Shown here one piece after another: positions 1 through 3,000 of a DNA stretch of 12,931 nt. The DNA lies in the IMG/VR virus record IMGVR_UViG_2695420487_000017; one strand, 5' to 3'. Position 1 is the first letter of the stretch; each line of letters starts with the position of its first letter. This DNA comes from a virus. Its lineage: Duplodnaviria > Heunggongvirae > Uroviricota > Caudoviricetes. A program made the position numbers.

Positions 1-3000
1 ACTTTCCAGAACCATACGGACTGCCCGTTGACGGACTTCAGGGGAAAAACGAGTATTTTTAGTCATCCTGTTTACCTCTTTCTCAGGAAGTTTAGTCTCC
101 AGGATTCCCGGGGCGGTTCAGGTTTTTACGTCAGATTCTTTTGGGATTGGCTTGCGTTTATTTCTGGAGCGTTTCGTTGGAAGGTATTTGCAGTTTTCGC
201 AGATGATGTCGGTGATACTTCTTCGCTGTCGCCTCATGCCGCCATCCTGACGCCCTGCCCGATCGCCATCAATGCCGCTTTGGATACAGTAGTAAACATT
301 CGTCGAGGACTGATGAACGGTCGCCAAATCAGCAGCATGGAGCCTTTGCTGTTTCCCTTCTTCTCCAGCCCTGTCGATGGTTCGATAAAATTAATCCGTC
401 CATCAGTGATAATGCGAACTTCGTCGACACTCTCCAGAGCCTTGCTGAACCATCCGACTGACATATCCTCTGGCACAAGCATCACTACCGTCTGTCGCTG
501 TTGTATGCACTGCTCAGCGGCTTTTTCCACCCACGGCCTGATATTGCTGTACGGTGGGTTATTCCAGATTGCACCGTGGCTTATCCACTCAGAATTTAGC
601 GCGTCGTCGGCCTCAGTTAGCCAGTGAGCGCACAGAGCATTTTTGTCGCTCGCAGCTGAATCCAGCCAGAATCCAAACTCAATATCCAGTGCATCAAAAA
701 GCCAAAGCGGCGTTTGCCAGCAGTCCTTGTCGTGTGATGGCGTATTTGATTTGATAGTCATGCAGCTCTCCCTTTTCGTTGTGACCATTCATACTCTCGC
801 CAGGAGTCATCACTCCACCGCACGTTGCGCTCTGAGCCGAACCAGAACATGATTTCGATAAGCTCAGTCATGCTGGCCTTCCGCATTTTGCTGGTACGCA
901 CGCCAAGCATGACAACGCCACCGTCGATACCAGGCACACTTCGTTGCTCCAGTTTTTTGGTCTTAAGCCACAGGGCAGTGAACAGGTCTTTCCAGTCTTC
1001 CGGCGCCAGCCGTTGACCATGCCATAGCACCTGACGCGAAACATCGTTCAGCATCGGCCACATACGGTCATTCTGCGCTTTGCTGCGCTTGGGTTCTTTA
1101 ACGTGGACTTCGTGGGGTGACTTGTCGTCGATGGGTAGTGAGAGAATGGCGTCTATGGCGTTATTTCTGATTGCTTCGTTGCGAAGCAGAAAGGTTTGCT
1201 TCATCTCCTGCTCTCCGGTTCCATTTTTCAGCCGCCGCAGCAACTGATGGTGCCCATGCCCCCCTGGCTTCACAGAGGTCACATTCTGCATAGCCCCACA
1301 CATCAATATTTATTCCGGCCTCAACCCACAGACGAGCATTACCGCCGCAAAACGGACATTCTTTTAGCTTTGGCTGGGTTAATGATAGGTCGCTCATGCT
1401 CACTCCTTCACTTAAAATCCAGACTCCGGATAATTCTGTTGCGCTGAAACTCATTGTTGAGTTTGAACAACCGTCGAAGAACACGGTCACGCGGATAGCG
1501 TCGTGCGGCAGGTGAATGCTCATACAACTCATCAAGCGGCAAACTGGACGATGAACGATACCGATACCAACGCACCAACTCTTCACGAAAATTAGCCCTG
1601 ACAAGCTCAGCTATCGTACTCATTTCTTAAAGCCTCCAATTACTCTTCCTCAAATAAAAAGGCCTGCGATTACCAGCAGGCCTGTTACAAGCTCAGTGAT
1701 GTAGATGGTCATCTTTTAACTCCATATACCGCCAATACCCGTTTCATCGCGGCACTCTGGCGACACTCCTTAAAAATCAGGTTCGTGCTCACCTTTCCTT
1801 CCCGTTCTTCCCTGGTAGCAAACCGGTAATACACCGTTCGCCAGACCTTACCATCAATGACAAGGATTCCTGCCCGCGCCATTTTAGCCGCAGCCTGATT
1901 TATACTGGTTACGGTTGCGCCTGTTAGCGCGGCAACGTCCGGCGCACAGAAGCTATTATGCGTCCCCAGGTAATGAATAATTGCCTCTTTGCCCGTCATA
2001 CACTTGCTCCTTTCAGTCCGAACTTAGCTTTAATTTCTGCGATCTTCGCCAGAGCCTGAACATGATTTAGAGGTCTGCCGCCCATGACAGGAAGTTGTTT
2101 TACTGGTTCAGGAATCACCTCACCACGGTTAATTCTCGCAGTCATATGGACAAGCTCATCTGCGGCCTTGCGCCGTAATTCCGCGTCAGTCAGCGCATTG
2201 GCCCGCATGTTCTGGTACAGGTTGGTAACCAGCCAGTAGTGCGCGTTCGATTTCCACGGATAAGACTCTGCATCCGGATACAGGCCTCGCTTCCGGCAAT
2301 ACTCGTAAACCATATCAACCAGCTCGCTGACGTTTGGCAGTCCGGCGATAACGGATGCTTCTTCCCGGCACCATGCAACAAACTGCCCGGGTGATGGAAG
2401 AAATGGTCGATTCTGCCGACGGGCTACGCGCATTCCTGCGTTAACCTGTTCCATCGAGGTGATCCCGTTTTCCCGGAAAGCCAGAACCCACTGGCGGCGG
2501 ATTTCATTCAGTTCGTTCTGGTCCCGGTTAGCCAGACTCGCCGGGAAAGTTGCCAGTAACTGGCTGAACACACCGTTGATGATCTGCGCTACCTGTTGTA
2601 CCTGCGGCTTTTCGTCGTACTGTTCCGGCATGTTGTTGGTGATCCGACGCATCTGCTCACGGTCAAAGTTAACCATCTGTGCGGCGATGTTTTTCATAAA
2701 TCCACCCCGTAAATCCAGTCAGTGTTTGTCAGGTCGAGTTTTGGTTTTCCAGCTGTCACGCCAGCCTGTTGCTTGTTACGGTTGATTTCGAGTTGGGTCC
2801 ACTTGTCGCGGAGTTTGGCCGGACTTAGCACGTTACCGGACCAGAAGTTGTCCTGGCATGCCCAGCGGAACAGCACGCACATGTCGCGGTGGTTACGTCC
2901 GTCACGTTCACGCATCAGGCGGATATCGTTAGCCCACCCTGCAAAATTCGGTTTTCTGGCTGATGGTGCGATGGTCTTCACCATGTCAAACATCCACTCT

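Follow-up and report, generated by a model that had tools for sequence, protein, structure and literature searches.

The window, a 12,931-nt stretch of viral DNA, most probably (probability of about 0.85) carries an IS629 insertion in ninE of a 933W-like lambdoid prophage, with the downstream nin genes and Q retained in a relative identical over 10.8 kb, and with a small expected polar effect. In the proposed course of events, IS629, a common insertion element of E. coli, would have transposed into ninE between codons 39 and 40, duplicating the triplet ACC; the element is oriented along pR transcription. The demonstrable consequence would then be limited to the small protein NinE, encoded in the dispensable nin region, lacking its last 21 residues, and to a P-Q interval lengthened by 1.3 kb. 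As such it is an ordinary IS629 insertion, involving a known element, a known target class and already-known biology.

Truncated ninE and the left end of IS629

The truncated ninE lies on the minus strand at 118..237, directly behind a phage Dam N6-adenine methyltransferase gene of 175 aa (234..761, minus strand; Pfam PF05869, E=7e-65). The ninE ATG (237-235) overlaps the Dam TGA (236-234) within an ATGA at 237-234, and the reading frame continues for 39 native codons to a TGA at 120-118 that is the first triplet of the IS629 left end. The first-pass annotation had described a minus-strand ORF that is ATGA-coupled to the methyltransferase stop, runs 39 codons and ends on the TGA of the IS, and these coordinates (237..118) were confirmed. 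Codon 39 (Thr) is the target triplet ACC, at 121..123 on the minus strand, which forms the left copy of the 3-bp target-site duplication.

The 39-aa NinE matched Pfam PF05322 at profile positions 1-39 of 58 (E=3.8e-26), scoring 91.2 bits against a gathering cut-off of 25 without covering the full profile length. Compared with lambda NinE, the first 39 residues fit the profile, and the ninB-(dam)-ninE order and the ATGA coupling are typical, whereas the C-terminal third (profile positions 40-58) is absent. In uninterrupted relatives NinE reads on to 58-60 aa, which disagrees with a natural ninE stop at this position, and alignment with three uninterrupted ninE loci showed that homology ends directly after ...GTAAAAACC(T). 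The last 21 ninE codons are displaced to the far side of IS629, outside the window. By its profile coverage, the ninE of the window is a truncated member of the family and thus a pseudogene fragment.

From position 120 downward, the minus strand of the window reads TGAACCGCCCCGGGAATCCTGGAGA..., and the whole segment 120..1 (IS629 left end, 1..120, minus strand) is identical at 120 of 120 bases to the left end of the element annotated as 'IS3 family IS629' in LC567824.1. An identity of this extent is no coincidence. The imperfect terminal inverted repeat IRL (TGAACCGCCCCGGGAATCCTGGAGA) occupies 120..96 on the minus strand, and the orfA start codon, an ATG at 66-64 on the same strand, opens MTKNTRFSPEVRQRAVRMVLES and is followed for 22 codons to the end of the window. 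The reference copy (LC567824.1, 51315-52624), from the Stx2a phage Stx2_499, is 1310 bp long with the ends TGAACCGCCCCGGG...CCCGGGGCGGTTCA, which agree at 23 of 25 positions; over the 120 visible bases the insertion site is the only difference between it and the copy in the window. RefSeq names IS629 as an 'IS3 family' or an 'IS3-like element IS1203 family' transposase, and the annotation of this IS in the loci L002 and L003 includes a programmed frameshift. Together, the 120/120 identity and the match to NinE profile positions 1-39 of 58 bear out the earlier claim that an IS3-family IS629 interrupts the native ninE after codon 39.

The window holds 120 of the 1310 bases of IS629, with the right end and the target duplication on that side beyond it; because it stops 120 nt into the element, the completeness of IS629 is unreadable from the window itself. 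The left edge most likely reflects a short-read contig break in a multi-copy IS. Another IMG/VR contig (L014) is identical to window 21-6779, likewise ends inside IS629, and may come from the same strain as the window source. When draft contigs end in an IS in this manner, a long-read relative is needed before the integrity of a prophage is judged.

Complete element and empty site in close relatives

A close relative was retrieved by an exact-protein look-up with the Dam allele of the window. This locus, L017/L026, belongs to GCA_977064715.1, where it lies on a contig of 4.87 Mb; it matches window 1-10761 at 100% identity, the 120 IS bases included, and carries at 10642-11951 a 1310-bp IS629 with the same junction as the window. 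This copy differs from the reference at 3 positions (1307 of 1310 identical to the Stx2_499 element), and shares with it the same ends, orfA and orfB, and a 3-4-bp target duplication. Both reading frames are intact: orfA encodes 108 aa with an HTH_Tnp_1 domain and orfB 295 aa with an rve domain. The triplet ACC is found on both flanks of IS629 in L026 and in L004, a contig carrying an Stx1 prophage, in the arrangement AAAACC|TGAACC...GGTTCA|ACCTTCAAC. IRL and IRR agree at 23 of 25 positions, IRR being visible in L026 and L004 but not in the window, and the ends of the element begin with 5'-TG and finish with CA-3', as read for IRL in the window and for IRR from L026 and L004. The other IS end and a 3-bp target-site duplication, which the first-pass annotation had proposed to look for to the left of the window, were thus found in L026 (1310 bp, ACC/ACC), and the possibility it had raised that the element is not a complete IS disagrees with this full-length copy in a sequence 100% identical to the window.

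The empty site is represented by L016 (GCA_016856785.1), which encodes an intact 60-aa NinE. Upstream of the insertion, L016 and L026 are 100% identical over 4642 nt, and downstream there are 0 mismatches and one 18-nt indel. When IS629 and one ACC are removed from L026, a 60-aa NinE identical to that of L016 is obtained, so that alignment with an uninterrupted ninE-Q region agrees with an interruption of ninE by the element. The 18-nt indel is, IS629 aside, the sole difference between L016 and L026 over 3.9 kb downstream of ninE; it lies in an intergenic position upstream of the HNH gene (L016 7046-7534 vs. L026 14359-14865).

In L026, IS629 is followed by a 611-aa opposite-strand gene, a 38-aa ORF, an HNH endonuclease, NinG, NinH and a metallophosphatase, and further on by a 207-aa Q antiterminator (PF03589), TfpB and a nanS-p-like esterase. 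Apart from IS629, this gene order recurs in L016 and L022, two relatives with an empty site, and no deletion or rearrangement was detected between L026 and L016 over the stretch compared, that is, through HNH and the start of ninG. The earlier statement that the IS cuts the nin region off from the downstream late-control genes therefore does not hold in L026, where the nin genes and Q all follow the element. No stx gene is present in L026 within the 8.6 kb available beyond IS629. The opposite-strand gene between ninE and HNH/ninG encodes 590-611 aa, belongs to phrog_9230 (unknown function), is convergent with pR, and is common to empty-site and IS-bearing relatives (L026 12524-14359, minus strand; L016 5211-7046; L001 3660-5432).

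Antitermination and transcription across the insertion

The window contains the features of a lambdoid N/nut system: an N gene, and boxB hairpins that follow pL and pR. The N antiterminator gene (6731..7114, plus strand) is intact and encodes 127 aa (Pfam PF25694 N_peptide, E=2.1e-15), the same length as in the relatives; this N is of the 127-aa type of 933W-like phages such as phi345. A candidate nutR, whose function is predicted, lies at 4046..4092 on the minus strand just downstream of the cro stop, with a boxA-like element at 4092-4085 (CGCTCTTT) and a boxB hairpin at 4061-4047 (TCGCTGACAAAGCGA). A candidate nutL boxB hairpin, likewise of predicted function, lies upstream of N at 6551..6565 on the plus strand (GCGCTGACAAAGCGC). 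The hairpin core GCTGACAAAGC occurs twice in the window against 0.36 occurrences expected, both at the expected nut positions, and a 'signal' feature is annotated at the nutR-equivalent place in phage phi345. We take the hairpin sequence of the two candidate sites to be a P22-type boxB.

In lambda, N relieves the polar effect of IS insertions, and the phage can lose the entire nin region, ninE included (nin5 deletion). The elongation complex modified by lambda N is highly processive and resistant to Rho-dependent termination (PMC12360218). Because N is intact and boxB hairpins are found at nutL and nutR, a pR transcript reaching ninE should be N-modified and termination-resistant. Upon induction, the pR polymerase would thus be modified by N at nutR and would read through IS629 into ninG and Q, and since the N-modified polymerase would pass the element, the polar effect on late-gene activation is expected to be small.

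The first-pass annotation had instead proposed that the IS is polar on late-gene activation and that the prophage is defective yet still expresses its immunity and moron genes. A strongly polar IS629 that leaves Q unexpressed has in its favour that, in the lambda paradigm, a pR transcript arrives at Q only by way of the nin region, and that the insertion adds 1.3 kb of foreign sequence with an untranslated leader of about 50 nt before orfA. Nevertheless, this reading is very unlikely, because N is intact and nut-like sites are present upstream, because no convincing sense-strand intrinsic terminator was found in IS629 by a consensus scan, and because another phage, whose IS629 also lies between ninE and Q, gave phage DNA when induced. 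On both strands of 4.6 kb comprising IS629 and its surroundings, the scan, a simple consensus scan blind to Rho-dependent sites, returned 4 weak sites against 3.5 expected from shuffled sequence. Moreover, the empty-site relatives already have a 1.8-kb opposite-strand gene in the path of pR; with this gene between ninE and Q even in the absence of the IS, read-through of obstacles would therefore be already built in. On the same grounds of N, terminators and precedent, a defective prophage that still expresses immunity and moron genes is unsupported and, on balance, unlikely as a consequence of the IS, although the prophage may be defective for reasons other than IS629. Were Q expression lowered by the insertion, this prophage would join the natural variants that modulate induction, but no result obtained here suggests so.

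The precedent is phage PA27 (KP682380.1; PST1-3, Yin et al., 2015, PMC4587872), in which a full-length IS629 with the duplication GGT interrupts roi, between ninE and ninG/Q. The PA27 genome assembly derives from phage DNA that had been enriched after ciprofloxacin induction of a culture, and thirteen PST1-1 phages with IS629 downstream of stx2 were recovered by the same enrichment (PMC4587872). PA27 resembles the window prophage in carrying a full IS629 in the nin region of a 933W-like phage, where it interrupts a non-essential gene. It differs in that the interrupted gene is roi and that its IS629, an O157-type variant with 96% identity, runs opposite to pR; further, phage DNA after induction is known for PA27, while the window prophage is known from sequence alone. 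The precedent is therefore close, but not exact, since the IS629 of PA27 is antisense to pR.

Occurrence of the junction and recurrence of the insertion

The string GACGTAAAAACCTGAACCGCCCCGGG marks the insertion junction in assemblies. The junction was not found in one piece among 5426 complete E. coli genomes, where 2 records cover at least 80% of the query, both as two-piece matches with the IS further downstream; nor was it found among GTDB species representatives. Phage records gave no one-piece match, and the only full-coverage match among them was in two pieces. It does occur in NCBI assemblies, draft or other, and one IMG/VR contig also carries it. One of these is L004, retrieved by an exact-protein look-up with the 39-aa NinE, in which the junction is followed by a 1310-bp IS629, ACC and the remainder of ninE. 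Only L004 was informative among the exact-protein matches of the 39-aa NinE; most of the others were rejected as insertion evidence, as their contigs end at ninE nt 116-119 and, being without IS sequence, were not counted.

Partial NinE products of many lengths occur at contig ends. The 39-aa form is found on 130 contigs, compared with 12-49 for the other partial lengths listed, and draft contigs from diverse prophage backgrounds (L005-L013 and others) end within 1-3 nt of the same ninE position. The assembler may have broken these contigs at an IS, or at forks that arise between co-resident prophages. That the window ends inside a repeat, and that many draft contigs end inside ninE for assembly reasons, would be in line with a junction that is not a real insertion at all but a NinE allele that is naturally short, or an assembly artefact in the form of a chimeric contig end. 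The chance of this is practically negligible, as the same junction is seen in at least 2 other assemblies (the 4.87-Mb contig and the Stx1 prophage contig), both of which have the full IS, the far-side ACC and the rest of ninE in frame.

A genuine insertion may have arisen once or more than once. The IS629 copies of L004 (5035-6344) and L026 (10642-11951) share the same ninE triplet ACC and the same orientation, and differ from each other at 10 of 1310 nt. Flank identity extends only from -123 to +20: differences set in at 124 nt upstream (19 of 650 nt) and at 21 nt downstream. The genes downstream are not the same either, with antirepressor genes in L004 and the 611-aa opposite-strand gene in L026. 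Near ninE, IS629 was also found in strains 99-3311 (in its Stx1a prophage; NZ_CP101310.1) and 51489 (in a further prophage; NZ_CM135151.1), with the same IS, orientation and neighbourhood, 0 and 6 differences from the reference, and the 3-bp duplications CGG and GAC, respectively. In both strains, however, ninE is intact, and IS629 lies past its stop by about 380 nt (NZ_CP101310.1) and 107 nt (NZ_CM135151.1).

Differing IS copies, differing flanks and downstream genes at one shared triplet, and further elements 107 nt and about 380 nt downstream of ninE are what would be expected if the ACC triplet were a preferred IS629 target that was hit independently more than once. This is conceivable but rather unlikely, because free recombination among lambdoid prophages, together with gene conversion of IS copies, leaves a single origin possible; moreover, the junction occurs in 0 of the 5426 complete E. 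coli genomes, and IS629 is reported to make 3-4-bp duplications and to have no sequence-specific target (PMC3271280). A more far-reaching version, in which the ACC of ninE codon 39 is a recurrent IS629 hot spot, struck separately in unrelated lambdoid prophages such as those of L004 and L026, and prophage induction drives the transposase, coupling transposition to the SOS/lytic switch, is appreciably less likely still; induction would drive transposase read-through here because IS629 points the same way as pR.

An ordinary IS629 insertion into ninE agrees with the general behaviour of the element. No other IS is as abundant as IS629 in O157 and related STEC, and across four O157 genomes 62% of its copies reside in prophages or prophage-like elements (PMC3271280). 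Diversity within Stx2a phage types is described as stemming chiefly from differences in how many IS629 copies there are and where they sit (PMC4587872). Small-scale variation among Stx prophages and their lambdoid relatives comes mainly from IS629 insertions, which also serve in strain typing. The practical value of the insertion described here is that of a lineage marker. A literature search for IS629 at this ninE site found no paper, its term 'ninE' having matched the numeral nine.

Two further features were observed in the course of the comparison. In phage vB_EcoP_phi345 (PV189402.1; L031, 16364-17577), two ORFs of orfA and orfB size, annotated as hypothetical proteins, run antisense to pL within its operon, where they separate kil/cIII from gam, and the IS end of the window matches there. 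The pair looks like an IS629-type element located within an early operon under N antitermination. It was considered as a precedent for a co-directional IS629 upstream of Q and was rejected, the IS being in the pL operon instead.

PADLOC, PHROGs and Pfam gave only unknown-function families for the neighbouring 332-aa, 156-aa and 611-aa ORFs. The 332-aa ORF (window 5235-6233, plus strand) belongs to phrog_6191 (unknown function), with only a sub-threshold aRib match in Pfam and no PADLOC match. It lies between cI and pL, the slot taken by rexAB in lambda and by the stk kinase in 933W, and it is a candidate lysogeny-expressed moron. A terminator-like hairpin with a T-run follows it at 6241-6265.
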